Below, in pieces: positions 15,616 to 32,618 of a DNA stretch of 64,000 nt (positions within the stretch are counted from its first letter, which is position 1; every line of letters starts with the position of its first letter). The position numbers and the translations under genes were made by a program. The notes under the pieces were generated by a model that worked only from the letters and a program-made list of their open reading frames with translations, ran no database searches and had not been told where the DNA came from. Source of the DNA: an uncultured Gammaproteobacteria bacterium (GTDB lineage Bacteria > Patescibacteriota > Patescibacteriia > GWA2-47-26); NCBI GenBank assembly GCA_964532925.1, contig CAZHIP010000003.1:644-64643 (forward strand), written 5' to 3'.

Positions 15616-17259
15616 CTACATGAGCAACAAACGCGCCATGCGGATCTCGTCAAACGAAAAATCATCGCCCAAAATGTTCTTTACCGGCGAAAGTGGTCGC
15701 CCACCACCCTCGAGCACACCGACTTTCGTAAATGCAGCCATAATTTTCTTGAGCCGTGTGGGAGAAAAATCGTCGCGCAAACGTGAGACATCAAAATCTT
15801 TGTCGCGCTCGAGTAGTGTTTCGATGTGTCCAACAATAGTTCCCACGGTCAACTCACGGGCCTTCGCAATTTCTTTTAATGTATGGCCCAAATGAAACAA
15901 TGTTGCGGTTTCATCATAGGTGTCTTTTTTGTCTTCAGGATCAGGTCCCGCGACACGCCGTAAAAATGTCTCATGCCGAACTTTTATTTCTTCTTGAGAA
16001 AGAGAACGAACATCGGTAGCATATTCTTTTGAAAACCGTCTGAACTCATCATCTTTTTCTAATACTTCATCGTGCACCATGAGCGCATGATTATTCATGC
16101 CTTTGAGCGACAATCCCGACAGCGACCGCAATCGTGACAACGCGACGTAGCCCATACCTGGTTCAAACGACTGTGACAAATCAACTTCCGCGGCATCCAA
16201 ACTCATGCCTTGGCTTTTGTGTACGGTTATTGCCCAGGCAAGTCGCAGTGGATATTGGGTAATTTCTGCTAATTTTTTGCCATTATCATCAATGCGCCAC
16301 GAATCCTGCTGAACCTCAATCCGCTGGCCATTCGAGGTACGAACAATAATCTCATCTTGGTCGCATGCTTCAACAACCCCGAGCGTGCCGTTGGCAAACC
16401 CGAACTCAAAATTGTTTTTCACAAACATAACCCGCGCACCAACCTTGAGTCGCAACGCCTCGGGTGCCAAACAACTTTTCTTTAACGAATCCACAATCAC
16501 ATCACGTCCATTTGAAGACATGCCATAGGTGTATATTTTCCCTGGCAAGCGCACAAGTTCGCGTTCATTTTCCTCATCAACATCCGCGTTGTGAGTGTAG
16601 AGCTTGGTTGGCTCGGCATTTATTTCTGGCGGTGCTTTGTGGCGCGACCACAGTATTCCAAGAATATCTTCCGTAACTGCATTGTCACGAATTGCGTTTA
16701 ATATCCCGACATACACTGGATCATTTTGCCGATGTTGTTCTTCGAGATAACAAACAACAAACTGCGACTCGCTCCAAGCGCTCGAGTGATACGCGAACTT
16801 ACCCGGTACTTGGCCGCTTCTCGAAACGGGTGGTAATTGAAAAAAGTCTCCACACACAATAATTTGCATGCCACCAAATGGCATGTCGATGCGCCGTAAA
16901 GCCCTAAGCACACGGTCGACCAGGTCGAGACGATAATGGTGCAGCATCGAAATCTCGTCGATAATCAAAACATCCGTGCCGTCCATGCGTCGCGTGATGT
17001 ACTGCTTCTCGGTCATTGCCTCAACCTCTTCGGCGGACAACGCACTCTTGATCCCAATCCCCGACCATGCATGAATGGTCATGCCCTGCATGTGCGTTGC
17101 TGCAATGCCGGTCGATGCCGTGATCGCGACGCCAACATGATTCTTTTTTAAATACTCAATATAGGTGCGCAGGGTATGCGTTTTACCGCTTCCTGCTGCA
17201 CCAGTCAAAAAAACATTTGCTCCGGTTTTCAAAATCAAAAGCGCCTCCTGTTGAGTCAT
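15616..17259 (-). CDS. PIF1/RecD-family ATP-dependent DNA helicase
   Basis: Walker A VFLTGAAGSGKTHTL, TIHAW, LIIDEISML, QLPPV motif, C-terminal UvrD_C-like segment VHKSQGMSLD; 547 aa. Confidence 0.8.
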   Translation of the reverse strand: MTQQEALLILKTGANVFLTGAAGSGKTHTLRTYIEYLKKNHVGVAITASTGIAATHMQGMTIHAWSGIGIKSALSAEEVEAMTEKQYITRRMDGTDVLIIDEISMLHHYRLDLVDRVLRALRRIDMPFGGMQIIVCGDFFQLPPVSRSGQVPGKFAYHSSAWSESQFVVCYLEEQHRQNDPVYVGILNAIRDNAVTEDILGILWSRHKAPPEINAEPTKLYTHNADVDEENERELVRLPGKIYTYGMSSNGRDVIVDSLKKSCLAPEALRLKVGARVMFVKNNFEFGFANGTLGVVEACDQDEIIVRTSNGQRIEVQQDSWRIDDNGKKLAEITQYPLRLAWAITVHKSQGMSLDAAEVDLSQSFEPGMGYVALSRLRSLSGLSLKGMNNHALMVHDEVLEKDDEFRRFSKEYATDVRSLSQEEIKVRHETFLRRVAGPDPEDKKDTYDETATLFHLGHTLKEIAKARELTVGTIVGHIETLLERDKDFDVSRLRDDFSPTRLKKIMAAFTKVGVLEGGGRPLSPVKNILGDDFSFDEIRMARLLLM

Positions 17260-17275
17260 AGTATATTTTACAAAG

Positions 17276-17359
17276 TGCCCAGAGAGGGACTCGAACCCTC
17301 ATGCCCATAACGGGCACGACATTTTAAGTGTCGCGTGTATACCATTCCACCATCCGGGC
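17276..17359 (-). tRNA. tRNA-Leu (anticodon TAA)
   Basis: Reverse complement folds: acceptor gcccgga/tctgggc, anticodon stem cgaca/tgtcg loop ctTAAaa, long variable arm gcccgttatgggc, T-arm gaggg-ttcgagt-ccctc. Confidence 0.85.
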
Positions 17360-17459
17360 GTATATGAATGTACCAATAAACTACCCTTTTCAGGGATTTT
17401 TTTCAAGTTTTTGGCTTAAGTACCTAGAAACTTCTTCAAAAAAATTGTATCATGCACTC

Positions 17460-18758
17460 ATGAAACGAGAACCTCTTATTCGCGTTGAAAATCTTCGCGT
17501 TGTTTACAACGAAGGCAAAGATAACGAATTTGTCGGGTTGAAAGACATCAATCTTTCTATTTATCCCCAAGAATATGTTATCTTTTTCGGCCCATCCGGA
17601 AGCGGAAAATCCACGCTTCTCTATGCCATTTTAGGTTTGCAAAAACCCTCGGCAGGGAAAATTTTTATTCACGACAAAGACAGCCTCAAGTTCAACGAAA
17701 AAGAGAAAAATGAAATGACCTCGAAGGTCTTTGGCATCGTTTTCCAACAATACAACCTAGTGTTTTCACTCTCCGTACTCGACAATGTTACCTTGCCGCA
17801 AGTATTTTTGAATGTAGGCACTGCCGAGCGCACCGGACGAGCCCACGAATTGCTCAAGCGTTTTGGTATCGAAGCACGCGCCAAAGCAACACCATCTCTG
17901 CTCTCTGGTGGCCAGCAACAACGAGTCGCTATTTGTCGTGCACTCGTCAACGACCCGCAAATTCTTTTGGCTGATGAACCGGTCGGCAACCTCGACTCGG
18001 AATCCGCCGACGTCGTCATGAAAACGATTCAAGATATTAACAAGAAAGACAAGAAAACGGTTATTCTTGTCACGCACGATCACCGGTATCTTCCGTTTGC
18101 TGATCGCATTTATTATTTCAAAGATTCACAACTGGAGCGCGAAGAAGTCGTCGCCAATAAAGCTTCAGACCTTATTTCAATGGGTAAACCCGGCGAAGAA
18201 GGCGGCAGAAGTGACCTCGAAAAAATCGCGCGTGTATATCCACATTTGTCGACAACACAGCTCAAAGCATGGAGTCTGACCAACTGGCTTGTCGAAGAAC
18301 TTACTGCAGAACAGCTTGGGCGTATGGAACATGCTATGGAAGATCTTTTGGGTGGTAAATCGAGCCAGCATACATTTTTCAAAAAACTCCACACGCCATT
18401 TTCTGAGGGTGGCATTGGTCTGTATATGTCCACCGCTATCAAATATAGCGAAAAAATTGAAAATATTTTGCGCACTGCCCACAATCTCAAAAAAGAACTT
18501 CGAACACCTCACACGCACAAGCAAGCATTGGGTACGTTGCGTAAATTTATCCTCGACGAACACTTGGGCGACCTCACTCGAGAACAAGTTGATCGCGTCA
18601 TGTCTATTATTTCTACTCGATCACTTGCAACAATATCCGCAGAAGACGCCCTCACGGCGCTCAAAACTCCGTTTGATGAGGGTGGTGTTGGCCTGCGCAC
18701 CATTACAGCCGAGCGAATTTCTGATAAAATTGAAGCAACCGTAGGACAGCTCGCGTAA
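17460..18758 (+). CDS. ABC transporter ATP-binding protein (MacB/LolD-like NBD) with about 200-aa C-terminal tandem-repeat extension
   Basis: Walker [14 protein letters not shown], signature [15 protein letters not shown], Walker [13 protein letters not shown]-loop VTHD; start moved to ATG 17460 downstream of the tRNA-Leu; C-terminus has two about 75-aa repeats each with TPF(S/D)EGG(I/V)GL. Confidence 0.85.
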
Positions 18759-18786
18759 TTTTCTCGCGCAGGTCCTTGGTATTTTC

Positions 18787-19989
18787 ATGCATACACTCGA
18801 TGCGCTGCGTTTATCAACCCGCATGTTTCGCACGCGACCAATGCGAACATGGCTGACGGTATTAGGTGTCGGCGCAGGTGCCGGCGCAGTTTTGTTTTTG
18901 GTATCTCTTGGCTACGGTCTTCAAAATATTATTCTCGAAAAACTCATCTACGATCAAGCACTTCTTTCTTTACGTGTTACCCCTGCTTCAGAAAACCTCG
19001 TCATTACCAATAAAACCATCGAGGAACTCAAGGCATTTCCGGAAACAAAACAGGTGTCCCCCATGACCTCCTTCACTGGCCAGGCAACTATTGGCGAATT
19101 AAGTGGAAATGTTCAGCTGTTTGCCGCATCGGCGCCTTTCTTTGCATCTTCTGGTATCAATGCAACAGCAGGTAGCCTATACAAAGATTCTGACCCTCCG
19201 AGTGTGGTGGTATCAGAAACCACCCTCAAAATGTTTGGCATCACCGATAAAAACGCTGCGCTTAGCAAAACGATTAAGCTGGAGGTATTCGTTGCCACCA
19301 AAAACGAAGATGGCACCGACGCGGTTACCATCCTTGATCTCCCGAACTCCTACACCATCAAGGGCGTGTTCGAAAGCGGGCAAGAAAGCACTATCTTTAT
19401 CCCTATTGCGGAAATTAGCGAAAAAATTACCATTGACCATTACGATATTTTGCAAGTTACCGCCACCTCTATCTCAACAGCCACCAAACTCAAAGACACC
19501 ATTATCAACAAGGGTTTCCGTGTCTCCTCGATCTCGGAAACCATTGATCAAGCCAACAAAATCTTCTCAATTATCCAGATCATCCTCGGGGTATTCGGTG
19601 CATTTTCCCTTGTCGTCTCCTCTATTGGCACCTTTAACACGATGACTGTCACGCTTCTTGAGCGCACGGGCGAAATTGGTATCATGCGGGCGCTCGGAGG
19701 TAGTCGCGGCGACATTCAGCGTGTTTTCTTGGCAGAATCTATCATTATTGGCGGTCTTGGTGGCATGACTGGTGTAGGGCTCGGAATTCTTGGCGGTGAA
19801 GTGTTTAACTACGGTATTAACTTGTTGGCAACTCGTTTTGGCGGACCGTCAATTCAATTGTTCTATTATCCTCTGCGTTTTCTCTTAGGCATTATCGCGA
19901 TTTCCACCATCATTGGATTCCTCGCGGGTGTATTCCCTGCCCGTCGCGCCGCACAACTCGATCCATTAGAAGCATTGCGATACAAATAA
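18787..19989 (+). CDS. ABC transporter permease, FtsX/MacB-type (4 TM with large periplasmic domain)
   Basis: N-terminal TM (TWLTVLGVGAGAGAVLFLVSLGYG), about 200-aa periplasmic domain, C-terminal three TM with GEIGIMRALGGSRGDIQRVFLAESIIIG motif characteristic of FtsX-like permeases. Confidence 0.8.
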   Translation: MHTLDALRLSTRMFRTRPMRTWLTVLGVGAGAGAVLFLVSLGYGLQNIILEKLIYDQALLSLRVTPASENLVITNKTIEELKAFPETKQVSPMTSFTGQATIGELSGNVQLFAASAPFFASSGINATAGSLYKDSDPPSVVVSETTLKMFGITDKNAALSKTIKLEVFVATKNEDGTDAVTILDLPNSYTIKGVFESGQESTIFIPIAEISEKITIDHYDILQVTATSISTATKLKDTIINKGFRVSSISETIDQANKIFSIIQIILGVFGAFSLVVSSIGTFNTMTVTLLERTGEIGIMRALGGSRGDIQRVFLAESIIIGGLGGMTGVGLGILGGEVFNYGINLLATRFGGPSIQLFYYPLRFLLGIIAISTIIGFLAGVFPARRAAQLDPLEALRYK

Positions 19990-20045
19990 AAAATCAAGTT
20001 GTCCACAACTAGTACACAGGCAAACCAAAATGGTACAATTACTCC

Positions 20046-23000
20046 ATGCCTGCCATTCGTTTTCGTGTTCGCCGCGTGAAAAAACGCTCCACACTTTCAC
20101 GCTGGTATTCAAAAATAATTAAAACAACAAATCGCGCCATTAGCCGATCTGTTTTTGCTATTCGCGTGCGTCGCAGTTTCCGTGCACTCCCCTCTCATCT
20201 CCGTACAGCAGTCATTGGAGTTGTGGTAATTGCGGTCGCAATACCTGCTGTTTTCCTCTACCCAAACTCAGCGCATGGCGCGAGCTACACTTTTGCGCAA
20301 ACAGACTGGCAAGGCGGCACTGATAGTGACACTGGCGCAGAACATGCTACTAACCAGACCGGTTGGACCAAATATTCCAGTATTTCCAACATGTCCGGCA
20401 CCACCTCCGCCGGCAATGCGGTCTTAACCACTGCTAGCTACACCGCAACCGACGACGGCACCCTAACCTCAACGGGTGCCGCAACTGGTGGCGGATTTAG
20501 CAGTGGCACCATCTCGAGTACTGCGGTTTCAGGAAGTGGGGCCAGTGGCGCCATAGCTCTCGATGGCTCAGCGACAGCTATTAATAACTGGTCTACTGCT
20601 GCAGCAGGCATTCCCGGCACAGTAACATCTGGAGGCTACATGATTCGGAATGGAACCGATGACACCCTATACCTTATCGGAGGTGGCACTACTGGATTAT
20701 ACAAATATACAATCTCGAGCAATCTCTGGACCACATTAACAGCCATACCTGCAGCTGTCGGCATAGGAGCCACCATGCTTCGCGATGGCTCCAGTGATGA
20801 TATTTACATCACTCGCGGTGGCAGCACGACTGCATTTTATAAATATTCAATTTCTGGTAACTCTTGGACAACGCTCGCAACAAGTCCTGCAGGTTTTGGC
20901 GCAAGTAGCAACATGATTCGCAATGCGTCAGATAACGATATTTATGCCGCCCAAGGTGGTGGCTCAAGCGCCTTTTACCGTTACTCGATTTCCGGCAACA
21001 CATGGACCACCTTAACTGCAATGCCTGGAGCATATGGTGCTGGCGGAAAAATCCTACGCAATTCCACTGATAATGATATTTATGCCCTCCAAGGTAATGG
21101 CAGTAGTGGCTTTTGGCGGTATTCAATTTCCGGCAACACATGGACATCTCTCGCCGTGTTTTCTGCTCTGGCCTACGACGATGCCTCAATCATTCGCAAC
21201 GGGTCCGATGACCTCTTCTATGCCACCAAAGGCGCCGCAACAGGTGGCTTTTACTCCTACTCAATCGCGGGGAATGTATGGACAACACTCACCTCAGCAC
21301 CCGGCAACATCCACCTTGGCTCAAAATTGATTCGCAATGGATCATCAAATGATGTCTACCTCACGCAAGGCAATGGTACGGGCTTCTATCGCTACTCTAT
21401 TTCCGGAAACTCCTGGACAACACTAACTGTTACCCCAGGAGCTATTGGCAATGGATCCTTTTTCTCTTGGGCATCCTCAGAAAACACTATATACATTAGC
21501 CGAGGTGCTGCTACGAATGGATTTTTTGCTTATTCTGTTTCTGGAGGCACATGGACAAGCTCCTACACTAGTAGTCTCACTGCAACTCTTGGGACCGTTG
21601 GTGCGGGTGCCCAAATGCTTCGCAATGGCACTGATGATGAGGTTTATGTAACCCAAGGTGGAGCCACTGGTTTCTATCGCTACTCCATCTCCGGCAACAC
21701 GTGGACAACGCTCGCTACCGTACCTTTTGCGGTTGGTGCCGGGAGCTCTATGATCAGAAACAGTAACGACGATCACATCTATCTAATTCGCGGTGGAGCA
21801 CTTTCTGGTTTTTTTCGCTACTCTATTTCAGGCAACACATGGACCACACTGTATGGAACCCCTGGCGCGGCTGGTGCTGGAAGTACCATGATTCGCGCAG
21901 GATCATCTGATGATATTTATTTATTACGTGGCGGAAGCACTACAAGTTTTTATCGCTATACTATTGCAGGAAACACTTGGACAACGCTCGCTGTTGTACC
22001 TGCGAATACTGGTGTTGGCGCCACTATTATTAGAAACGGGACCGATGATGACATTTACGCTCTCCAAGGGAATACCGGCACTGGACTCTATCGATACTCA
22101 ATCACCGGTAACTCATGGACCACGTTAACAATAGTGCCTGGTACTACTGGTGATGGGGCAGCTATGCTACGCAATGGGGCAGACAATGATATCTACATTT
22201 TGCGCGGTGGTGGCAACAATAGTTTTTACCGCTACTCTATTTCAGGAAACTCCTATACAGCTCTCACTGTCGTACCTACTGCATCAAACACGGGTGGGAC
22301 CATGCTTCGCAATGGATCAGACAACGATATTTACATCTTCCCGGGATCTAGTGCCACCTTTTATAAATATTCCATCACGGGCAACTCCTATACAGCAATG
22401 CCCAATGTGCCAGGATCTATTAGTACTGGAGGTGGTGCCATTCGAAACAGCGCAAACGAAAACAACTTCTATATCCTTCAAGGTGCGGGTACGGCGTTTC
22501 ATAAATTCACCATCAACCAAGTTGTCTACAACGCCTCTGGAACTTTTACTTCGGCAACAATTGATACCGCGGGCGTGACTGCCTATGGAAATGCATCATG
22601 GACCATCTCACTGCCGACAGGAACCACGGCCACTGTGGCAACGCGAACAAGCTCTGATAGTAGCTCATGGTCTGCGTGGAGCGCCGAACTTTCTACCGCC
22701 GCAGGCTCTGCTATCACCTCAAACACCGACCGATATATCCAGTATCGCCTCACACTAGGAACATCTGATTCTGCCCTTACTCCCTCTATTAGCGATGTCA
22801 CGCTTGCTTATACTGCATACAACACCTCTGGCAACCTAGTTTCTTCTATCTTTAATGCGAGTGATGCCACCAACGTGATCGGAGGTCTTGCATGGACCGA
22901 AGATGCAAGCCTCCCATCGGGCACCAGTGTAACTATTTCGCTTCGTGCCGCCGCATCTTCTGGTGGTGTTTCTGGCGCCTCCTGGAGTGATTTCACAAAC

Positions 23001-26000
23001 GCGACCGCAAACTGCTCAAAGTCTACGGGTACAGTAACCTGTACGAGCGCTGCAATTCCTGTTGGATTGCTAACCAATGCACAATATTTCCAATACAAAA
23101 TTACATCAGCGTCTACTAATGGCGGCGCGTCCCCAACCATTGGGTCTGTGACTACCACCTACGTCGTCAATGCACCGCCGGAATTACAAAATGTCACGGC
23201 AACACAAGGCTCTGACGGTTTAGTTACCATTAGCTATGATGCTCGCGACCCTGATACAGCCTCGGGATCCCCCGCAAACCAAGGTCATGTTACCCCCTCT
23301 TTCGAGTACTGGAATGGCTCCAGCTACAGCGCGATAACAACACTGGCAGTAGGAGACACTTCGAATAAGGCAGTCAATGCAGATGGCACCACCTGGACCA
23401 CACACACGGCAACCTGGACAGCCACGACTGATTATTCCGGCCAATACATGAATAACACAGCAAAAATTCGTGTTACCTTAAACGATAATGAAGCTGCGAA
23501 TAACACAGCAAACTCAGAAAGCGCCACATTCACGCTTGACACCAAGGTGCCAGCCAGTGCTTCAGTGCTCGCTGACTACTCAACCGCCAACTCAGGCAAT
23601 AGCTACTTGGCAACCCTGACGCTCGCCGCAAGCGACGACACCGCACTTACCATGATGATCTCAACGACCTCAAACCATGCAAGCCCGCTCTTTTCTGGTG
23701 CCTACGCCACCTCAAAAACCGTTTCTGTCGGCAACACACCAGATTCTCCGGACACGATCTATGTTCGCTTTACTGATGCCAAGGGTAACATCACGAACGT
23801 ATCAACCACTCCGCCTGCCCGCGGCACAAACCTCATGATCCAGGATATCTCAAACATCACCACCGCCCCCGCAGAGTACCGCTTGTTCGTTGCATGGAAA
23901 GCTGTGTCCCCGACCGGTTTTGGCTCATACAAAGTCTATCGTTCAACCGATCAGTCCGTCTGGTCGCTCCTCACCACCATTGCCACCGCAGGAACCAACT
24001 ACTACACCGACTCAACCGTTTCCGCTGACACTGCATATTATTACCGCGTAACGATATTAAACAGCAACAGTGATATTTCATTCGTCTCCGCTACGGTAAA
24101 CGGTAATGCGAATGGTACTCAGGATCCAGGCGAAGGTGCCGGCGGTTCTTCGGTGGCTCCTGTTCTCTCAAGCGTCACAGTGGGCTCTATCACTCCCACG
24201 ACCGCCACGGTCACCTGGGACACGGACCAAATTTCCAACTCAGCAGTCAGCTACTCAACCACCGCCGCACTCTTTAACACCACCACGTCGGTCTCATCCA
24301 TGCTTGATACTGCCGCTGGTGTTGGCCAACACAGCGTAGTGCTTTCTGGGCTCACTCCTAATACCACCTACTACCTCCGCGCAAGCTCTACGAACACAAC
24401 CGGCTCAACTGGCACCGCATCAAATGGTGGGAACGGCTACACCTTTACCACACTTTCAGGACCTGCCATTACCGCCACCGGCACCGCTCGCACCGAAAGC
24501 ATCAGCAACACCTCTGCTACCATTGTCTGGCAGACATCCTCTGCTGCTGATTCCGAAGTTATCTACTCAACCAGCCCGACGTTCGCAAGCTCAAGCACTA
24601 CTTCATCGTTAACCATGGTTACCGACCACTCAGTCACCCTGACAAGCCTTTCCGCCGCCACCCAATACTTCTTCTATGTGCAGTCAACGGATGAAAGCAA
24701 CAATGTTGAACAAGACAAAAACGTGGTTGACGGCGTAGCCCGCTACTATTCGTTCACCACCTCAAACGATTCCACTGCTCCAACCATATCTGCAGTGAGC
24801 GCAGTCGCTCAAACCACCACCGCAGTTATTCTCTGGACCACAAATGAATCAGCCACCTCACAGGTTGAATACGGCACGACCAACTCTTACGGCACAAGCA
24901 CCACACTCGATTCAACCCTCACCACACAACACTCAGTATCACTATCCTCGCTTACCCCTGGTACCCTCTACTACTACCGCGTCAAAACAACCGACACAAA
25001 CGGTAATCTTTCCACTGGGTCTGAACAAACCTTCACCACCGGCGACTCCACCGCACCGGTGATTTCTAGTGTTGCATCAGGTAGCCTTGCGCTCACGAGC
25101 GCGACCATCACCTGGACCACCAACGAACAATCTAATAGCGTTGTCGAATACGGAACATCAACGGCGTACGGCTCTACTGCCGGCAGCGAAGTGGAAGCAG
25201 TCACCTCTCACTCGGTCACCCTCTCAAGCCTTTCCGCTAACACGCTCTACTACTACCGCGTCAGGTCTCGTGACGCATCCGGCAACCTTGCAACGAGTGA
25301 TAATAGTGGCAATGGATACACCTTTACCACCGTAGCTGACTCAACTGCGCCAACGATTTCTAATGTAACTACTGCACTCGTCTCTGATACTTCTGCCATT
25401 ATTACCTGGACAACCAATGAAGTTGCAAATGCCAAAGTTGAATATGGGCCAACGATCGCGTATGGCTCATCAACCATTGTTACCGCTTCATATACCACCA
25501 ACCAAACAGTACAAATAACCGGGCTCACCAAGAGCACCCCATACTTCTTCAAAGTTATCTCCATTGATCCTTCCACCAACTCGACCACGAGCGACAATAC
25601 TGGTGCGGGTTATACCTTTACTACAACAGCAGACCCAGTAGCCGCGAGTAGCGGTGGTGGAGGTGGTGGCGGCTTCTATCCAGGAGATGTTACTCCACCA
25701 AATATCTTGGATGTAAAAATTAATAACATCACCAGCTCAAGTGCTCGCATCGAGTGGCTTACAGATGAAGCCGCAAACACCATGGTGAGCTACAATGCTC
25801 CCAACCAACCTGCATTCCTCGAAGGAAACTCCGACGACAGCGCTCCAACTCATGCGGTCACTCTTACTGGCCTGGAACCTGCTACCACCTACTCATTCCG
25901 CCCCATCTCCTACGATGCAAAAGGAAACAAAGGCACCGGAGAGTTGAGCAAGTTCACTACACTCGGGAAAGATGGAAAAGTAATTGCCGCTCCACAAATT

Positions 26001-27143
26001 GGCACACCTCCGGCTCCAGCGACTCCTGCTACTCCCGCACCCGCAACACCTACGCCTGCAGCCACGAGCTCATCGTTATTGGATACCTTAAAAACAATTA
26101 TCAGTAATCCGTTGCTTTCCGCATTACCGGAATCAACCCTCATCGCACTCCTCAATGATCTATCCGCCAAAGCAATCTCTCCGCCAACTATTGTAAGCAA
26201 TAAGGCTGATGTAGAAGTGAAGGGCACTGTCGCCACTATCACCTGGAGTACGGATAAAAAAACCATTGGTGTGGTTGCATATGGGAAAATCGGTGAACCT
26301 TTAAACGAGAAAAATCAGTTCAGTATTGCCGGCAACATCAACACCTATAACACGGACCATAAAGTTGTACTGGACGGATTAGACCCTGCAACTACCTACA
26401 AATATGAAGTACAAGCAAAGGCTGCCTATGGTCCCGAGGCAAAGTTTGTCGCTGGTACATTCAAGACAACCACAGAGTTGCCCGTAATCTCGAATATCAA
26501 ACTCGATAGCATTAACGACAACTCCGTCACTGTGCAATGGAAAACCAATACTCCAACGAGTGCCTCTGTTGAATACACAAACCGCGATACTCAGGTCACT
26601 CTGGCACAGGGCGACACCTCTCTTTTGAGAGATCACTCAATCACCGTCAAAGACCTGCTTTCGGGTGCCCCCTACTCTCTCGTGATTAAAGCATCAGATG
26701 AATTCAAAAATGAATCCGTTTCTGGTAGTGTGCCGTTTACCACTGGCAAAGACGTGCTTGCCCCAGAAATCACCAAAGTTACCGCAGAATCCACCATCTA
26801 CCCAGGCAAAGAGTCCCGCGTGCAGACGATCGTCACTTGGACAACCAATGAACCTGGTACCTCTCAAGTCTTCTATCAAGAAGGTGTGGGTGTTGATGCT
26901 AAGGCTATCGAACTCTCGAAAGACAACACGCTCACCTTGGCTCACACAGTGGTCGTCACAAAATTTGCTCCAGCTTCGATCTACAAGTTCTGGGTCGTGT
27001 CAGTCGATGCTTCAGGAAACTCCACGCGATCAAAGGACTACACCATTCTGACACCACAACAGAAAGAAACCGTGGTGGATGTGATCCTGAAGAACTTCGA
27101 GCAAACCTTCGGGTGGACACAAAGACTCAAGGGAGGCAATTAA
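20046..27143 (+). CDS. Giant (2365 aa) membrane-anchored surface protein with about 40 Kelch-like beta-propeller repeats and about 10 FN3-like repeats
   Basis: Single uninterrupted ORF; N-terminal basic region + TM (LRTAVIGVVVIAVAIPAVFLY); residues about 190-830 are about 47-aa repeats (...IRNGxDxDIYxLxGGxxxxFYRYSISGNTWTTL...); residues about 1370-2330 are about 100-aa repeats (TAPxISxVxxxxxxxTSATITWTTNExxNSxVEYGTxxxYGSTT...HSVTLSxLxxxTxYYYRV) typical of FN3/purple-acid-phosphatase-N-like beta-sandwich domains. Confidence 0.8.
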   Translation: MPAIRFRVRRVKKRSTLSRWYSKIIKTTNRAISRSVFAIRVRRSFRALPSHLRTAVIGVVVIAVAIPAVFLYPNSAHGASYTFAQTDWQGGTDSDTGAEHATNQTGWTKYSSISNMSGTTSAGNAVLTTASYTATDDGTLTSTGAATGGGFSSGTISSTAVSGSGASGAIALDGSATAINNWSTAAAGIPGTVTSGGYMIRNGTDDTLYLIGGGTTGLYKYTISSNLWTTLTAIPAAVGIGATMLRDGSSDDIYITRGGSTTAFYKYSISGNSWTTLATSPAGFGASSNMIRNASDNDIYAAQGGGSSAFYRYSISGNTWTTLTAMPGAYGAGGKILRNSTDNDIYALQGNGSSGFWRYSISGNTWTSLAVFSALAYDDASIIRNGSDDLFYATKGAATGGFYSYSIAGNVWTTLTSAPGNIHLGSKLIRNGSSNDVYLTQGNGTGFYRYSISGNSWTTLTVTPGAIGNGSFFSWASSENTIYISRGAATNGFFAYSVSGGTWTSSYTSSLTATLGTVGAGAQMLRNGTDDEVYVTQGGATGFYRYSISGNTWTTLATVPFAVGAGSSMIRNSNDDHIYLIRGGALSGFFRYSISGNTWTTLYGTPGAAGAGSTMIRAGSSDDIYLLRGGSTTSFYRYTIAGNTWTTLAVVPANTGVGATIIRNGTDDDIYALQGNTGTGLYRYSITGNSWTTLTIVPGTTGDGAAMLRNGADNDIYILRGGGNNSFYRYSISGNSYTALTVVPTASNTGGTMLRNGSDNDIYIFPGSSATFYKYSITGNSYTAMPNVPGSISTGGGAIRNSANENNFYILQGAGTAFHKFTINQVVYNASGTFTSATIDTAGVTAYGNASWTISLPTGTTATVATRTSSDSSSWSAWSAELSTAAGSAITSNTDRYIQYRLTLGTSDSALTPSISDVTLAYTAYNTSGNLVSSIFNASDATNVIGGLAWTEDASLPSGTSVTISLRAAASSGGVSGASWSDFTNATANCSKSTGTVTCTSAAIPVGLLTNAQYFQYKITSASTNGGASPTIGSVTTTYVVNAPPELQNVTATQGSDGLVTISYDARDPDTASGSPANQGHVTPSFEYWNGSSYSAITTLAVGDTSNKAVNADGTTWTTHTATWTATTDYSGQYMNNTAKIRVTLNDNEAANNTANSESATFTLDTKVPASASVLADYSTANSGNSYLATLTLAASDDTALTMMISTTSNHASPLFSGAYATSKTVSVGNTPDSPDTIYVRFTDAKGNITNVSTTPPARGTNLMIQDISNITTAPAEYRLFVAWKAVSPTGFGSYKVYRSTDQSVWSLLTTIATAGTNYYTDSTVSADTAYYYRVTILNSNSDISFVSATVNGNANGTQDPGEGAGGSSVAPVLSSVTVGSITPTTATVTWDTDQISNSAVSYSTTAALFNTTTSVSSMLDTAAGVGQHSVVLSGLTPNTTYYLRASSTNTTGSTGTASNGGNGYTFTTLSGPAITATGTARTESISNTSATIVWQTSSAADSEVIYSTSPTFASSSTTSSLTMVTDHSVTLTSLSAATQYFFYVQSTDESNNVEQDKNVVDGVARYYSFTTSNDSTAPTISAVSAVAQTTTAVILWTTNESATSQVEYGTTNSYGTSTTLDSTLTTQHSVSLSSLTPGTLYYYRVKTTDTNGNLSTGSEQTFTTGDSTAPVISSVASGSLALTSATITWTTNEQSNSVVEYGTSTAYGSTAGSEVEAVTSHSVTLSSLSANTLYYYRVRSRDASGNLATSDNSGNGYTFTTVADSTAPTISNVTTALVSDTSAIITWTTNEVANAKVEYGPTIAYGSSTIVTASYTTNQTVQITGLTKSTPYFFKVISIDPSTNSTTSDNTGAGYTFTTTADPVAASSGGGGGGGFYPGDVTPPNILDVKINNITSSSARIEWLTDEAANTMVSYNAPNQPAFLEGNSDDSAPTHAVTLTGLEPATTYSFRPISYDAKGNKGTGELSKFTTLGKDGKVIAAPQIGTPPAPATPATPAPATPTPAATSSSLLDTLKTIISNPLLSALPESTLIALLNDLSAKAISPPTIVSNKADVEVKGTVATITWSTDKKTIGVVAYGKIGEPLNEKNQFSIAGNINTYNTDHKVVLDGLDPATTYKYEVQAKAAYGPEAKFVAGTFKTTTELPVISNIKLDSINDNSVTVQWKTNTPTSASVEYTNRDTQVTLAQGDTSLLRDHSITVKDLLSGAPYSLVIKASDEFKNESVSGSVPFTTGKDVLAPEITKVTAESTIYPGKESRVQTIVTWTTNEPGTSQVFYQEGVGVDAKAIELSKDNTLTLAHTVVVTKFAPASIYKFWVVSVDASGNSTRSKDYTILTPQQKETVVDVILKNFEQTFGWTQRLKGGN
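20600..22500 (+). repeat. Tandem about 141-bp imperfect coding repeats (Kelch-like units) inside the giant gene
   Basis: Recurrent protein motif YRYSISGN(T/S)WTTL roughly every 47 codons, at least 15 recognisable units. Confidence 0.6.
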
Positions 27144-27199
27144 TACGTGAGATGTAAGATGATAATAAAAAAACACCCGGTTTAATCCTGGTGTTTTTT

Positions 27200-27274
27200 T
27201 GGTGCGGGTAGAGAGAGTCGAACTCTCATCTCTGCCTTGGCAAGGCAGCATAATAGCCGCTATACGATACCCGC
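27200..27274 (-). tRNA. tRNA-Gly (anticodon GCC), CCA encoded
   Basis: Reverse complement: acceptor gcgggta/tacccgc, anticodon stem ctgcc/ggcag loop ttGCCaa, T-arm gagag-ttcgact-ctctc, discriminator A + cca. Confidence 0.85.
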
Positions 27275-27383
27275 CTACGCTAAAGCTTCGGCGGGCAGGC
27301 CCGCGTAAGGCACTTAGTGTTGGCGCTGCAAAATCACTACGAACGAGGAGGAGTATAACAAAAGATTAGTCATGAGGCAAGCC

Positions 27384-29879
27384 CTATTTGGGGGCTCGCC
27401 ATACCCGCAGTCGGTGTACCACTCGAACGAGACATCCTTTCATTTTCTCGAGCGAAATGGCGCCTTTTATGAGCAGACTCACAAGAATACTTCCCAGTGC
27501 CACAAAAATGGCTGGCCATGGGAACGAACGAGGTTTTTCTACAGGTATCACCATCTCAACAACCGGCTCTACTTTAGTAGGCGGTGGTGGTTTCTCTAGA
27601 GTAATTTCTGCAAGCGTTCGTGGCACAATACGCAAACCCGCATTTGATTTCCGCACCTGGCCAGTGACGACTACCTTGTCACCAATGCCAGGAACTATAT
27701 TCTCCTTGCGATAATTCACTGCGGCCAAAGAAACTCGGAAGGAATGATCTCCATCTTTAATAGTCGCTATATTCCCCTTCTTTTCACTCACCATCCCACT
27801 CGTTCGAAGAACCTTCCCCACCATCTTGTCGGTAATACGTTCGAGTGAAACCAGGGGTCTTATTGGCTGGCTTTTACTGGCGGTTGTTTTTACTGTACTA
27901 GGTTTTGGTGTTTTTGGTTTTGTAGACACCACTTCCACGACAACTTGTTTTGTGGGTGCAGTGTTTGGTGTTGGCATTTCTGCTACAACCACATCTACTT
28001 TGTTTTCGCGATCAGGGCTAGGGGTAACCCACAACCAATCACCCGAAACCATTGCGAAAGATTTACCAACTGCGGCACCCCGATACATTATCTTATCTTT
28101 TTGATGCCGTTTCTGATCATACAGCGCTACATACCCTTTTTGCTTGAGAGTGTATTCGTCGAGTGGCACAGCAAAAAACCCGTGAGGTGCAATAACAATA
28201 TTTGAAAGATTTATTTGATGTTCTTCGTCATCTTTAAGACTCCACCCACTCAACCTGATATAAGAATCTGTCGTATTTGAAAGTTCTGCAAACGGTAAAT
28301 GTTGTAGTGGGTTTATCTCGGATATAACCACTGCTCCGTCTGGAATAGTTATCATATCTGGCGGCACTCCCTTGGTATTCGTGTCGCCTTTTGTTGCATT
28401 TAGTGCGATAAAATCCTTACTATCAACTCCTGTGTCGTACCCGTCAGATCGGCGACCAATGCTTTGAGGATCCATCGCTCTTAGTGCATTATCAACGCGA
28501 TTTCCATCATCCCAACTCCCATAACTCACACGATCATGTACCTCGCCCTTGTCGTCACGCAACACAACCACATCACCAGTGTTATTGAGTACACCTGGTA
28601 CATCTTTTACCACAAAAAACTGCCCTGGGATCCATGTGCCTACCAATGTTGTTTTTGCCCCTGACCCATCTTCAATCGTCCAACCCGCAAGATCAACCGA
28701 TGTTTCTCCGGCGTTATATAGTTCAATCCATTCAGTGTCACCATCACCCGGGTCAATCATCAATTCATTGATTCGCATGACTGCACTTGGGTTTGTTTTT
28801 ATAGTGCGTGAAGATATGCCACCGGCTGCCACCTCGCGTTGCAAAATAATATTCGGAAACCCTTTCGTTGGTTCCTCGGTCATGGCAAAATCTTGTGCAT
28901 TATTCCCTGTGCTCAGCGCACTGCTTTTTCGTGCGACTGCCTGATTTGTTTTAATACTCGCCGCATTGTCACTAAGATTTCCATCGTTCCATTTTCCGTA
29001 ACTGACCGCATCAAGCTCTATGCCGCTTAAAAGAATTCGTACTCGGTCACCATCGTTATTTATTTTGGCACTCGAAAGATCAAAAGCCTTAAGACTGTTT
29101 CCCGGCATTTGCCCAGACAAAGAAAGAATCGGCCCAACTCCGTCTTCTAAGGTTACACCCGAAAGATCAATTGAATTTGCGGTGGTATTTACTAATTCCA
29201 CCCACTCACTACCACTCGATGGTGCGGGAAACACTTCGTTAATCAACAGACTCCCTGCAGAAATTGCCGGCAACGTACTCGGTTGGCTTGTTGTTGCTTC
29301 CGTGGTTTGAGGTGTAATTACAGCAGCTGTTTTTGTGCTTGTTGGATTTGGGGTTGTTTGTAAGAAAAAATCCTTACTGTTGTCTCCCGTGTCCTCACTA
29401 CCTAGTCTTCTCTCAAGGCTTTGTTTAGCCCCTGGATTGGTTTCAAAAGCATTAATGCGAACAAGTACTCCCGTGGCACTTCCCCACCCCAGAGAATCGA
29501 TTATATCGCCTGTGTTTGCATCCCCACGCCGCAATGCGATTGAATTGTTATCCGAAAGTGTTCCGCTATTGGTTTCATTGGGTATCACCCCTGGTTGTAA
29601 AAAGTTCGTATTTGCCCATAAAAAGTACTCGCCGGCTGGAATAACCACCGAAGATGTCCATGATTTTATGGTGGTATCTGTAGTACCGGTGGCCGTGCGC
29701 TTTACGAGGCGATATCCAGTAAGATCAACAGGTTGGTTTGTTGGATTATAAAGTTCGATAAAATCCTGGTCGGTGGCACCAATACCACCAGTAATCTGAA
29801 CCTCGCTAATTACCACATGATCATTTGCCGCAAAAACGCTATTGGGCAACAAAAAAATTGCGATAACAAAAACCTTCAT
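27384..29879 (-). CDS. Membrane-anchored extracellular protein with four lamin-tail domains (LTD) and an OB-fold domain
   Basis: Signal peptide MKVFVIAIFLLPNSVFA; four copies of LTD signature (VISEVQITGG..DQDFIELYNPTNQPVDLTGYRL; LLINEVFPAPSSGSEWVELVNTTANSIDLSGVTL; MRINELMIDPGDGDTEWIELYNAGETSVDLAGWTI; VVISEINPLQHLPFAELSNTTDSYIRLSGWSL); OB-fold-like KVLRTSGMVSEKKGNIATIKDGDHSFRVSLAA...KVVVTGQVRKSNAGLRIV; C-terminal TM FPWPAIFVALGSILVSLLI. Confidence 0.75.
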   Translation of the reverse strand: MKVFVIAIFLLPNSVFAANDHVVISEVQITGGIGATDQDFIELYNPTNQPVDLTGYRLVKRTATGTTDTTIKSWTSSVVIPAGEYFLWANTNFLQPGVIPNETNSGTLSDNNSIALRRGDANTGDIIDSLGWGSATGVLVRINAFETNPGAKQSLERRLGSEDTGDNSKDFFLQTTPNPTSTKTAAVITPQTTEATTSQPSTLPAISAGSLLINEVFPAPSSGSEWVELVNTTANSIDLSGVTLEDGVGPILSLSGQMPGNSLKAFDLSSAKINNDGDRVRILLSGIELDAVSYGKWNDGNLSDNAASIKTNQAVARKSSALSTGNNAQDFAMTEEPTKGFPNIILQREVAAGGISSRTIKTNPSAVMRINELMIDPGDGDTEWIELYNAGETSVDLAGWTIEDGSGAKTTLVGTWIPGQFFVVKDVPGVLNNTGDVVVLRDDKGEVHDRVSYGSWDDGNRVDNALRAMDPQSIGRRSDGYDTGVDSKDFIALNATKGDTNTKGVPPDMITIPDGAVVISEINPLQHLPFAELSNTTDSYIRLSGWSLKDDEEHQINLSNIVIAPHGFFAVPLDEYTLKQKGYVALYDQKRHQKDKIMYRGAAVGKSFAMVSGDWLWVTPSPDRENKVDVVVAEMPTPNTAPTKQVVVEVVSTKPKTPKPSTVKTTASKSQPIRPLVSLERITDKMVGKVLRTSGMVSEKKGNIATIKDGDHSFRVSLAAVNYRKENIVPGIGDKVVVTGQVRKSNAGLRIVPRTLAEITLEKPPPPTKVEPVVEMVIPVEKPRSFPWPAIFVALGSILVSLLIKGAISLEKMKGCLVRVVHRLRVWRAPK

Positions 29880-29995
29880 TACGTGAGTCCTCCGCTCCCA
29901 CATAGTATATCCCCCTTAAAAATGTGTTTCAATTATATCAAACACTTTTATTGCCGTCTTGTGGAAAAGATAAAATTCGCTTATTCTACTGGCAT

Positions 29996-31340: not shown

Positions 31341-32465
31341 CTAATCTTGCTTAATCGGCATGATGATATAAAGATGTCGCGCGTTACCCTTGGGAGCCAA
31401 AATACACGGATTAGCGCCGTCAACGATCCTGAATTCAATATCAGTAGATACAAGACTGTTTACTCCCTCGAGAAGATAGCGATAGTTAAAGGTGATTTTT
31501 GTTTCTTCCCCTTTTATTTCTGCAGGCACCGATGTTGCATAATTACCAAACTGCGTATTGCCTGAATCAATCTTCACAATATTGTTTTCTGGATCAATCG
31601 AAAGATGCACATCGTTCACGCCGGTTTTTGAAAACAAGCTTGCCGCTTTAATTGCCTGCACAAAGTCTTTTTTCACCACCACGACCGATGTCTTTGTCTC
31701 TTTAGGAATAATTTGTGTATAGTCTGGGTATTGTCCGTCGACCAAGCGTGAAATAAGCTCTACCCCGCTTCCCTGGAAGGTTACTTGGTTGGGTGAAATA
31801 ACCAATGTTGCTGTGGTATCAGCGCCTTTTTTCTGGTTAAAGATACGAACAAACTCATGGAGTGTTTTTACCGGCACAATCATTGAAGCAACTGCACCCT
31901 CCGAAGTAACCGTACATGGCACCTGTACTTCTGCGAGGCGATAACTGTCAGTGCCGACGAGTTTCATTACTTTTGATTCAGCGTCATACGTAAATAAGAC
32001 ACCAGAAATTTCTGGACGCACTTCACCGGGCGAAACTGTAAACAAAATACTTCCTACTGCTTCGAGCAATAACGGTAAATCGAATTGGACCACCAGCGAA
32101 CCTTCAACATCTGGAAGTAGTGGAAATTCTGATGACGGCATCCCTTTGATTTTTGTCGCACTTTTTCCACAAGCGATTTCGGCACCATCCCCCGTAACCA
32201 CAATATCTATTTTTTCATCTGGCAATACAGACACATAGTCCGCTAATAATTTTGCCGGCAATGTATATTCACCATGCTCTTCTATTTTTGCACGCACTTT
32301 TGCACGAGCACCAAGTTCGAGATTTGTCGCACACAAGACCAACCCATCTTCATCGGTCTTTAAGAGAATATTACTCAGGATGGGAAGATTCCCTCCTCGG
32401 GTTGCAATATTACTCACTACATTGATTCCTCCAACGAGATTATCTTTTGTACAACTTATCCTCAT
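31341..32465 (-). CDS. dnaN: DNA polymerase III beta sliding clamp
   Basis: 374 aa, three-domain clamp pattern, located immediately downstream of dnaA; N-terminus MRISCTKDNLVGGINVVSNIATRGGNLPILSNILL. Confidence 0.9.
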   Translation of the reverse strand: MRISCTKDNLVGGINVVSNIATRGGNLPILSNILLKTDEDGLVLCATNLELGARAKVRAKIEEHGEYTLPAKLLADYVSVLPDEKIDIVVTGDGAEIACGKSATKIKGMPSSEFPLLPDVEGSLVVQFDLPLLLEAVGSILFTVSPGEVRPEISGVLFTYDAESKVMKLVGTDSYRLAEVQVPCTVTSEGAVASMIVPVKTLHEFVRIFNQKKGADTTATLVISPNQVTFQGSGVELISRLVDGQYPDYTQIIPKETKTSVVVVKKDFVQAIKAASLFSKTGVNDVHLSIDPENNIVKIDSGNTQFGNYATSVPAEIKGEETKITFNYRYLLEGVNSLVSTDIEFRIVDGANPCILAPKGNARHLYIIMPIKQD

Positions 32466-32618
32466 AGTCGTGTGTTTGAATCTATTCTTTTAATATATAT
32501 GTAACCAGTAATAGTTCTAGTATAGGAGTGGAAAGCGTGGATAACTGGTTTCTGGTTGATATGTTAAGGCTTTTGCTTGTGGATAGTATGGGAGAGATGC
32601 TCTGCGCGCTTTGTATAA
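32466..32618. promoter_or_regulatory. dnaA-dnaN intergenic region with DnaA-box-like sites and AT-rich tract (candidate oriC segment)
   Basis: gtggataac at 32537-32545 and tgtggatag at 32578-32586 (each 1 mismatch to TGTGGATAA), AT-rich ttcttttaatatatatgtaacc at 32486-32507. Confidence 0.45.

Follow-up and report, generated by a model that had tools for sequence, protein, structure and literature searches.

A giant protein of 2365 amino acids (aa), encoded in the window (the whole stretch of 64,000 nucleotides (nt) of contig CAZHIP010000003.1 analysed here), ends in a conserved C-terminal tail, and across homologous loci of the Candidate Phyla Radiation (CPR, Patescibacteria) the genes of proteins bearing this tail are nearly always accompanied by those of an ATP-binding cassette (ABC) transporter of type VII, whatever the type of the head of the protein. 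In the window, the ABC pair precedes the giant gene, whose product carries a Kelch head, a stalk of FN3 domains and the tail (Table 1). As a giant CPR surface protein, we rate it as ordinary; the new part, in our judgement, is the ABC link, which would be a variant on the known type VII systems that have an extracytoplasmic partner of their own. It is possible, and we propose it with reserve, that the tail and the MacB/FtsX-type ABC pair constitute an undescribed Patescibacteria system for the sorting, anchoring or actuation of interchangeable, giant FN3-stalked fibrils. Such a system would be the counterpart of sortase/LPXTG or exosortase/PEP-CTERM, with a type VII mechanotransducer that mounts the fibrils and possibly also powers or releases them.

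The tail (ILTPQQKETVVDVILKNFEQTFGWTQRLKGGN) follows the consensus [YF]T[IV]LTPxxxE[ST][VI][IV]D[VL]Ixx NFxxxF[GS][WF]x[KR][KR]; of the 120 best homologues, about 110 have it as their very last residues, Parcubacteria-type and Microgenomates-type alike. A hidden Markov model (HMM) of the tail matched a single site in the window, that of the giant protein itself. With a hydrophobic moment (muH) of 0.50 and a mean hydrophobicity of 0.06, the tail is amphipathic and not a transmembrane (TM) segment, and its helix was modelled by AlphaFold2 (AF2) with a low predicted local distance difference test (pLDDT) score. No Pfam or NCBIfam models exist for it, and the last 60 aa gave just DUF3240 at E 0.13 in Pfam. 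Neither the tail nor the helical hairpin of the stalk, the extension of the ATPase or their ABC linkage was found described in curated profile libraries or in the open-access literature.

A collection of 1.84 billion cluster representatives was screened with a profile of the last FN3 domain plus the tail, and the top 143 new proteins were assessed. The tail ended 78 of these 143 further representatives, with lengths of 780-6321 aa and FYRYSI Kelch repeats in none of them. Tail-bearing giants carry heads as varied as Kelch, RCC1, WD-like/FN3 and CBM/LamG, and those with RCC1, WD-like/FN3 and CBM/LamG heads showed the same ABC pair alongside. As the tail is found under so many head types, FN3 stalk and tail therefore form the constant module of these proteins.

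Relatives with a Kelch head and no tail end differently. Three of them, and probably a fourth (P0029, P0036, L006 and probably L010), carry a C-terminal PG_binding_1 domain, an ending seen in some CPR, and four Chloroflexi-labelled ones (L028, L041, L051, L066) end in a TM helix followed by an Arg/Lys-rich tail, as in ...ILPWLTIFGFIVLVGGGIGCKLIIVKRNRR, which resembles another kind of C-terminal signal, for anchoring or sorting, behind the same type of head. Because these tail-less relatives end in recognised C-terminal anchors, the C-terminus would be the cell-proximal, anchoring end. In the window's giant protein, the pattern LP.[TSA]G occurs nowhere and no TM stretch is present at the C-terminus, which does have a basic end; the curated C-terminal sorting domains of NCBIfam (PEP-CTERM, GlyGly-CTERM, T9SS CTD, etc.) gave no match, and neither peptidoglycan (PG)-binding nor SLH motifs were detected with Pfam or NCBIfam. 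The GGxGxD motif of RTX proteins is also absent, a hydrophobic leader is present at the N-terminus, and the adjacent ABC pair is of MacB type, without HlyD.

The linkage of tail and ABC pair was scored on 77 loci from species-representative genomes, retrieved with an alignment of the Kelch blades and searched for a tail at the C-terminus of the open reading frame (ORF) and for a homologue of the window permease. Counts were restricted to loci with the Kelch ORF ending inside the locus and at least 3 kb downstream of it. The permease was present in 30 of the 32 evaluable tail-bearing loci versus none of the 23 tail-less ones (Fisher p = 1.6e-13, uncorrected for phylogeny). A close Kelch homologue ending in PG_binding_1 has no ABC pair at its locus. 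Where present, the permease always lay on the same strand as the giant gene, downstream in 29 loci and upstream in three, and the genes often overlapped or abutted. In homologue loci the ABC pair is usually found directly downstream of the giant gene; in the window, it lies upstream by 56 nt. Two formats of the module were observed: in the Parcubacteria type, to which the window belongs, the ATPase has about 411-476 aa and the permease about 400 aa, and in the Microgenomates type an ATPase of about 266-320 aa, without extension, accompanies a permease of typically about 705-855 aa.

Type VII ABC systems are described as mechanotransducers that act on extracytoplasmic partners or membrane-embedded substrates (PMC5985334, PMC7668044, PMC6355983, PMC12646458), working with a dedicated extracytoplasmic partner (PMC7668044, PMC6355983, PMC12646458). 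The pair of the window has the make-up of such systems, with an N-terminal extracytoplasmic MacB_PCD domain (aa 21-237, 56.9 bits, cut-off 27) and a C-terminal FtsX domain (aa 269-393, 61.4 bits, cut-off 25.5) in the permease, both from Pfam, and a separate ATPase of the LolD/FtsE/MacB clade. In NCBIfam, the ATPase came nearest to LolD, DevA, MacB and FtsE, and the permease to MacB, ADOP, LolC/E and FtsX, and neither reached the equivalog level of MacB, LolCDE or FtsEX proper (lolCE, 69 vs. 362; FtsX_Gpos, 35.7 vs. 225; LolD, 188.7 vs. 307.75). Since all scores fall far below the equivalog cut-offs, the pair forms, judged by its sequence, a subfamily of its own among the type VII ABC systems. 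The nearest sequences in the Protein Data Bank (PDB) were Bacillus subtilis YtrF (9o9x), MacB (5lil), 5xu1 and LolC/E/F. No HlyD/MacA gene was found in the neighbourhood within the window or in the homologue loci.

The extension of the ATPase (aa ~290-476, window ~18190-18755) contains the motif TPFxEGG[IV]GL twice, its halves match each other by BLAST at E 1e-8, and it is conserved in 18 Parcubacteria-type module loci; Pfam gave no match on the isolated extension. The longest ATPase ORF, from a GTG at 17328, overlaps a tRNA-Leu(taa) gene on the opposite strand (17275-17359), so that translation probably begins instead at the ATG at 17364 (MNVPINY...) or a later Met.

Table 1. Features of the giant gene, the ABC pair and the neighbouring genes (window coordinates; residues refer to the giant protein)
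Feature	Residues (aa)	Position	Strand	Evidence and remarks
ABC ATPase, LolD/DevA/MacB/FtsE clade, with module-specific ~180-aa C-terminal extension		17328..18758	+	Pfam, NCBIfam
MacB_PCD + FtsX permease (type VII ABC), 400 aa		18787..19989	+	Pfam; ends 56 nt before giant ORF
Giant ORF	2365 in total	20046..27143	+	ATG start; stop codon 27141-27143
Predicted Sec signal peptide	1-78	20046..20279	+	Basic n-region, h-region aa 54-72, c-region PNSAHG, predicted cleavage AHG/AS
Conserved mature N-terminus A-S-YTFAQTDWQGG and low-complexity S/T/G/A-rich segment	79-195	20280..20630	+	BLAST conservation
Kelch beta-propeller 1, blades 1-7	~196-510	20631..21575	+	Pfam; AF2, 28 strands (7 x 4), pLDDT ~90; Foldseek
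Kelch beta-propeller 2, blades 8-14	~511-830	21576..22535	+	AF2, Foldseek; follows strand-free linker of ~26 residues
Two all-beta sandwich domains (RYIQYRLTL; QYFQYKITS)	828-925, 926-1042	22527..23171	+	AF2 strands, pLDDT 60-80
Ig-like/beta region	1043-1265	23172..23840	+	Colinear in ~50 homologues
FN3 array, first 7 domains		23841..25955	+	Classical FN3 (aa ~1266-1367), then six PAP-N-type
PAP-N-type domains 1-6	1368-1461, 1469-1561, 1572-1662, 1664-1755, 1762-1853, 1879-1970			Local profile/Pfam
Helical hairpin	~2007-2046	26064..26183	+	AF2 helices H14-25, H35-50 (model m4a9ac1f5ebed); after Pro/Thr-rich linker
Last three FN3/PAP-N domains	~2047-2137, 2140-2230, 2233-2333	26184..27044	+	AF2, local profile
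Conserved C-terminal tail, ~32 aa		27045..27140	+	Tail HMM E 3e-19; amphipathic helix aa ~2343-2359, basic end
tRNA-Gly(gcc)		27200-27274	-
LTD x4/OB-fold protein		27384-29903	-	Convergent with giant gene

At the opposite end of the giant protein, a basic stretch (aa 1-53) is followed by one hydrophobic helix (aa 54-72, 19 aa) with a Kyte-Doolittle mean of 2.55; no second TM-grade segment was found in the protein, the top 19-aa hydropathy outside this helix being 1.45. An earlier note on this DNA, made from the letters and a list of ORFs, had read these elements as a likely signal anchor; it mentions neither the C-terminal tail nor the MacB-type ABC pair upstream, which we regard as the informative features. 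The basic segment and the single TM-grade helix are indeed there, but an anchor is less likely, given that the residue at -1 to the predicted cleavage point (three before Tyr) is A, G or S in 77 of the 79 homologues with a YxFxQxxW motif. The residue at -3 (five before Tyr) is small or aliphatic in about 76 of these 79, the hydrophobic region of the homologues stops about eight residues ahead of the predicted point, and the invariant motif ATYTFxQxxWxGG follows directly after the predicted AxA site (AHG/ASYTF in the window). As this -3/-1 pattern is conserved right before the invariant motif, a Sec signal peptide cleaved by signal peptidase I is predicted as more likely than a signal anchor. 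No lipobox was found in the protein, and its translation may actually begin at a GTG inside the frame (codon 41). The mature N-terminal segment is conserved by BLAST in 58 of 119 homologues, gave no significant family when searched in isolation against Pfam, and was modelled by AF2 as one short strand followed by disorder at model residues 8-71.

The head contains 14 Kelch units of 45-50 aa between residues ~198 and ~830, with the (Q/R)GG, FYRYS and W motifs. The earlier note had counted about 40 such repeats, a figure that disagrees with its own span (640 aa / 46 aa) and has to be corrected to 14, whereas the repeat length of about 47 aa and the motifs YRYSISGNxWTTL and DIY..(Q/R)GG that it described were found over this range, within FYRYSISGNxWTTL and IRNGxDxDIY..(Q/R)GG. 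Its suggestion of multiple beta-propellers was also borne out. Four Pfam models scored over their cut-offs (Kelch_4, 63.8 bits for 21.6; Kelch_6, 46.2 for 25.3; Kelch_1, 31.9 for 20.1; Kelch_3, 25.0 for 22), and AF2, given 13 aligned sequences for aa 79-1045, produced a model with a mean pLDDT of 80.7 and about 90 over the blades, which were four-stranded. The order of strands in this model was 28 (7 x 4), a strand-free linker of about 26 residues, around 25 more strands and then two beta-sandwiches. The top Foldseek matches in the PDB were all tandem double propellers at E ~1e-17, namely Utp21 (4nsx), BT4663 (4a2l), GH74 enzymes (6p2l/2cn2) and LRP6; since identities were 9-15% and TM-scores 0.3-0.5, the head has only its fold in common with them. 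The N-terminal halves of the homologues fall at about 650 or about 965 aa, a gap of about seven blades, and the homologues thus appear to carry one or two propellers. From the strand counts of the model and these length classes, we take the 14 blades to form two propellers of seven blades each. Behind them, the two beta-sandwiches (aa 828-925 and 926-1042) are conserved in 118 and 66 homologues, respectively, with no significant Pfam family for either in isolation, and the Ig-like region gave merely sub-threshold hints of TIG, GldM_2nd and GH85_C in Pfam.

The repeats of about 100 aa toward the C-terminus, noted earlier as beta-sandwich-like, proved to be about ten FN3-type domains of some 90-100 aa between residues ~1266 and ~2333, nine of them PAP-N/FN3 envelopes of a local profile and one a classical FN3. 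Pur_ac_phosph_N (165.9 bits, cut-off 30, E 3e-49) and fn3 (108 bits, cut-off 25, E 3e-31) each matched nine stretches, so that propeller profiles (Kelch) and sandwich profiles alike lie above their cut-offs in this protein. A Gly7 linker separates the fifth and sixth PAP-N domains. The structure prediction that had been suggested as a check on the repeat blocks gave, for aa 1995-2365 (mean pLDDT 80.6), a two-helix hairpin, three FN3 beta-sandwiches and the terminal helix. Hairpin and tail are the sole helical elements of an otherwise all-beta protein; the hairpin is conserved, equally far from the C-terminus, in about 19 homologues of the Parcubacteria type, and gave no significant family in isolation against Pfam. 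When searched as a whole, the giant protein gave no NCBIfam family at E <= 1 and a single weak FN3 match among PDB sequences (6x3a, E 6e-4).

The gene itself is one uninterrupted frame, as the earlier note had it, and an identical protein is present in a public protein collection (P0001, NCBI source, 79-kb contig). A protein so strongly repetitive at the amino-acid level could in principle come from repeats collapsed or expanded during assembly. At the DNA level, Tandem Repeats Finder detected no tandem array in the gene, and the Kelch blade units have a mean identity of 52% (maximum, 66%) with a longest exact word in common of 20 nt; this absence of arrays and the divergence of the blades, which are old repeats, make collapse or expansion very unlikely. 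In addition, many independent assemblies contain homologues in the same length class, with which the protein is colinear as a whole. The DNA repeat scans and unit identities having given only diverged coding repeats, the artefact was rejected, and we assign it a practically negligible probability. A promoter and terminator scan of positions 17000-27500 gave counts equal to the shuffled expectation.

The reading that we tentatively prefer is that of a giant surface fibril, exported by Sec, with its tail stably docked to the type VII ABC complex in the manner of the partners of FtsEX, and with possible ATP-driven actuation. The leader, with its basic and hydrophobic parts, would be removed by signal peptidase I at AHG/AS, to leave a mature protein of about 2290 aa with the tandem 7-bladed Kelch propellers at its N-terminal, cell-distal end, where they would bind ligands. 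The stalk, made of the two beta-sandwiches, the Ig-like region and about ten FN3 domains, would have a length of roughly tens of nanometres, and the C-terminal part, comprising the helical hairpin, three FN3 domains and the 32-aa amphipathic tail, would be proximal to the cell. There, the tail would be recognised by the presumably co-transcribed MacB/FtsX-like ABC complex (17328-19989). With FtsEX-EnvC/PcsB and YbbAP-TesA taken as models, this complex would keep the foot of the fibril at the membrane and could relay ATP-driven conformational changes to it. Both the cell-proximal position of the C-terminus and the recognition of the tail by the ABC complex are suggested by the constant C-terminal module under a variable N-terminus, the conserved signal-peptide site and the C-terminal anchors of the relatives. 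In view of the modular binding-domain heads and of general CPR biology, the double propeller is plausibly a head for adhesion or host recognition.

Several points weigh against this reading. The arguments for contact between tail and permease are their gene linkage and the presence of helical elements, and that for cleavage of the signal peptide is the -3/-1 rule, in a sequence whose n-region is unusually long unless the start is internal. Since tail and FN3 stalk always co-occur in the data, the stalk or the hairpin, instead of the tail, could account for the ABC linkage, and the mechanism may not be uniform, given the format of the Microgenomates-type permease and the absence of the ATPase extension there. 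Two tail-bearing loci (L035 and L076, both with about 5 kb on the downstream side) lack an adjacent ABC pair, and the synteny is confounded by phylogeny, most of the tail-less controls being non-CPR and only about six of the evaluable tail-less loci CPR-labelled. Kelch propellers can also be enzymes, and we infer the adhesin role on generic grounds.

The main alternative is a LolCDE-like action, in which the tail (or an uncleaved N-terminal helix) would sit in the outer leaflet after Sec export until extracted by the ABC complex at the expense of ATP; the fibril would then be freed to the cell wall or S-layer, the medium or the host cell, and the complex would be a transient processor, not an anchor. 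Such a role would agree with a permease and an ATPase about as near LolC/E and LolD as they are to MacB, DevA and FtsX, and with a tail whose hydrophobic moment is typical of surface-seeking helices, whose end is basic and which remains unpacked, at low confidence, in the AF2 model. A locus with one ABC pair for two tandem giants (L013) would suit an enzyme-like function, and YbbAP is described as extracting hydrophobic compounds out of the membrane (PMC12646458). However, a protein freed in this way would have no evident means of retention, as LPXTG, PG-binding, SLH and lipobox motifs are all missing from it, the choice of anchors among its relatives points to the C-terminus as a stable anchor, and the module, at the homologue loci examined, includes no conserved gene for a LolA-like acceptor or an adaptor. 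We consider this alternative unlikely.

A comparably low chance is given to the topology of the earlier note, with an uncleaved N-terminal signal anchor and the tail at the distal end, for instance as an oligomerisation or partner-binding helix; the ABC pair would then be linked otherwise, e.g., through the export of lipids, glycans or peptides for the same surface structure. The single strong 19-aa helix behind a long basic segment does resemble a type II anchor, long basic N-terminal regions recur among the homologues, and the conserved cytoplasmic extension of the ATPase could touch a cytoplasmic N-tail. On the other side, the small-x-small site and the helix-breaking c-region before the invariant motif fit cleavage by signal peptidase I, and relatives that share this N-terminus and end in PG_binding_1 or in a TM helix with a basic tail would be tethered at both ends. 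Furthermore, variation is found in the heads, at the N-terminus, and the module at the C-terminus is constant, and it is the constant part that usually faces the cell's own machinery. Still less probable, in our opinion, is an extracellular enzyme or sensor, with propellers that are catalytic (like GH74 xyloglucanase, galactose oxidase or NanM mutarotase) or sensing (like BT4663) and a stalk serving as spacer. GH74 enzymes and the BT4663 sensor domain are among the Foldseek matches, and some homologues are auto-named in their source as 'N-acetylneuraminic acid mutarotase' or 'Chitinase A1 precursor'; yet, at the identities and TM-scores given above, the fold alone is in common, no glycoside-hydrolase or oxidase family was detected with Pfam or NCBIfam, and the heads are swapped with RCC1, LamG and CBM on the same stalk, as is typical of binding modules.

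Regarding the organism, the best named relatives of the window's DnaA (57-64% identity) belong to Uhrbacteria, Magasanikbacteria and Parcubacteria, which supports the CPR origin proposed in the earlier note and makes the organism a Parcubacteria-type CPR bacterium. The extracytoplasmic placing of the giant protein in that note was likewise supported. Homologues numbered 260 at E <= 1e-10 among 8000 scored candidates, mostly of 1900-2600 aa, with Taylorbacteria, Magasanikbacteria, Paceibacterota, Woesebacteria, WWE3 and Microgenomates among their named sources, and more than 100 of them have the build of the giant protein; colinear with them over nearly its full length, the giant protein classifies as one member of a widespread CPR family. 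Many labels of metagenome-assembled genomes in the genome collection look unreliable, and CPR-type modules were found on contigs titled 'uncultured Gammaproteobacteria', 'Weeksellaceae' or 'Udaeobacter' (L017, L020, L025, L026, L031, L038, L054, etc.). Such titles are probably placeholders or binning errors and no guide to the true range of the family.

A few homologue loci showed particular arrangements. In one clade (L001, 8001-17026; L002, 8001-16771), the giant-ABC module lies between fusA and tuf, in the str/S10 ribosomal-protein cluster, an unusual site for a 10-kb surface-protein module that may imply strong constitutive expression. Locus L013 (221-16171) contains a single ABC pair followed by two tandem tail-bearing giant genes (2067 and 2331 aa), where one ABC complex may serve several fibrils. 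In L073 (701-6366), the giant gene seems split into a tail-less ORF (P0094, 1556 aa) and a tail-bearing one of 499 aa, followed by the ABC pair, which is probably due to a frameshift or assembly error in that contig. Finally, an acidic protein of about 160 aa, ending in EEDEEKFYLEPVE, is encoded just downstream of the permease in nine loci (L001, 17764-18258; L002, 16891-17382; and seven more); since it is confined to one clade and the window lacks it, we do not count it among the core genes of the module.

Within the window, the giant gene converges on the LTD/OB gene across the tRNA-Gly, a layout that the earlier note had described correctly; the LTD/OB gene was rejected as a member of the unit, being absent from all homologue loci examined. 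Its product has four lamin-tail domains (LTD), an OB fold and an N-terminus weakly matching the model of the extracellular exonuclease ExeM (E 4e-12, a score well under the cut-off), and possibly binds nucleic acids at the surface or outside the cell. The dnaN and dnaA genes lie at 31341-33986 (-), 4-7 kb downstream of the giant gene, where the GC skew changes sign, and the cumulative GC skew has its minimum at about 32 kb; the replication origin is probably just beyond dnaA, with the giant gene within about 6 kb. At 12578-13669 (+), the window also encodes a protein of the TMEM43 family (Pfam E 4e-53), named for a eukaryotic transmembrane protein.

Large surface proteins are thought to mediate the episymbiosis of the ultra-small CPR/Patescibacteria. 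If the link between tail and ABC pair is functional, a signal recognisable in the sequence and its paired machine would mark, throughout the radiation, a whole class of such giant proteins and would tell which end of them faces the cell. It would also add giant fibrils to what type VII systems are known to handle, next to the control of cell-wall hydrolases, the extraction of lipoproteins and efflux, and would provide annotators with new profiles (tail, hairpin, ATPase extension) and experimenters with a small target. If the link is merely operonic, the giant protein is just one more representative of its widespread CPR family.

Large surface proteins with FN3 or Ig domains have been noted generically in Patescibacteria, in terms of domains only and with a host-interaction role inferred (PMC13059738, PMC11809585, PMC10633639); none of the papers found mentions such a tail or hairpin, or a MacB-type ABC pair linked to these proteins. 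The type 1-secreted RTX adhesins, such as LapA and MpIBP, are likewise very large, repetitive surface proteins linked to an ABC transporter. They differ in having a C-terminal secretion signal, RTX repeats and an HlyB-type ABC with HlyD and TolC, whereas the giant protein has a predicted N-terminal Sec signal, no RTX motif and a MacB-type ABC. Sortase-anchored LPXTG adhesins of MSCRAMM type in Gram-positive bacteria and the PEP-CTERM/exosortase system share with the giant protein, as we read it, an N-terminal Sec signal, a distal head, an Ig/FN3-like stalk and a short, basic-ended C-terminal signal with a dedicated membrane machine. Here, in contrast, there is no LPXTG, no TM-grade tail and no NCBIfam sorting model, and the machine is an ABC transporter, not a transpeptidase.

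LolCDE and MacAB-TolC belong to the same transporter superfamily as the pair of the window (MacB 5lil and LolC/E/F being among the nearest) and handle a membrane-associated extracytoplasmic substrate instead of pumping across the bilayer. Unlike in those systems, the locus has no lipobox substrate, no MacA/HlyD adaptor and no LolA-like gene, and the candidate substrate is a C-terminal amphipathic helix; a CPR bacterium would be expected to lack both TolC and an outer membrane. FtsEX, with its partners EnvC in Escherichia coli, PcsB in Streptococcus pneumoniae, CwlO in B. subtilis and RipC in Mycobacterium tuberculosis, and YbbAP-TesA, are type VII pairs with a dedicated exported partner, as proposed for the window. 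In contrast to FtsEX, the permease matches MacB_PCD (Porter plus Sabre type) and not the FtsX equivalog, the ATPase bears a unique duplicated extension of about 180 aa, and the putative partner is an all-beta fibril of about 2300 aa without a hydrolase domain. As in those partners, with their coiled coils, helical elements are the candidates for docking in the giant protein, in the form of the hairpin and the terminal helix.

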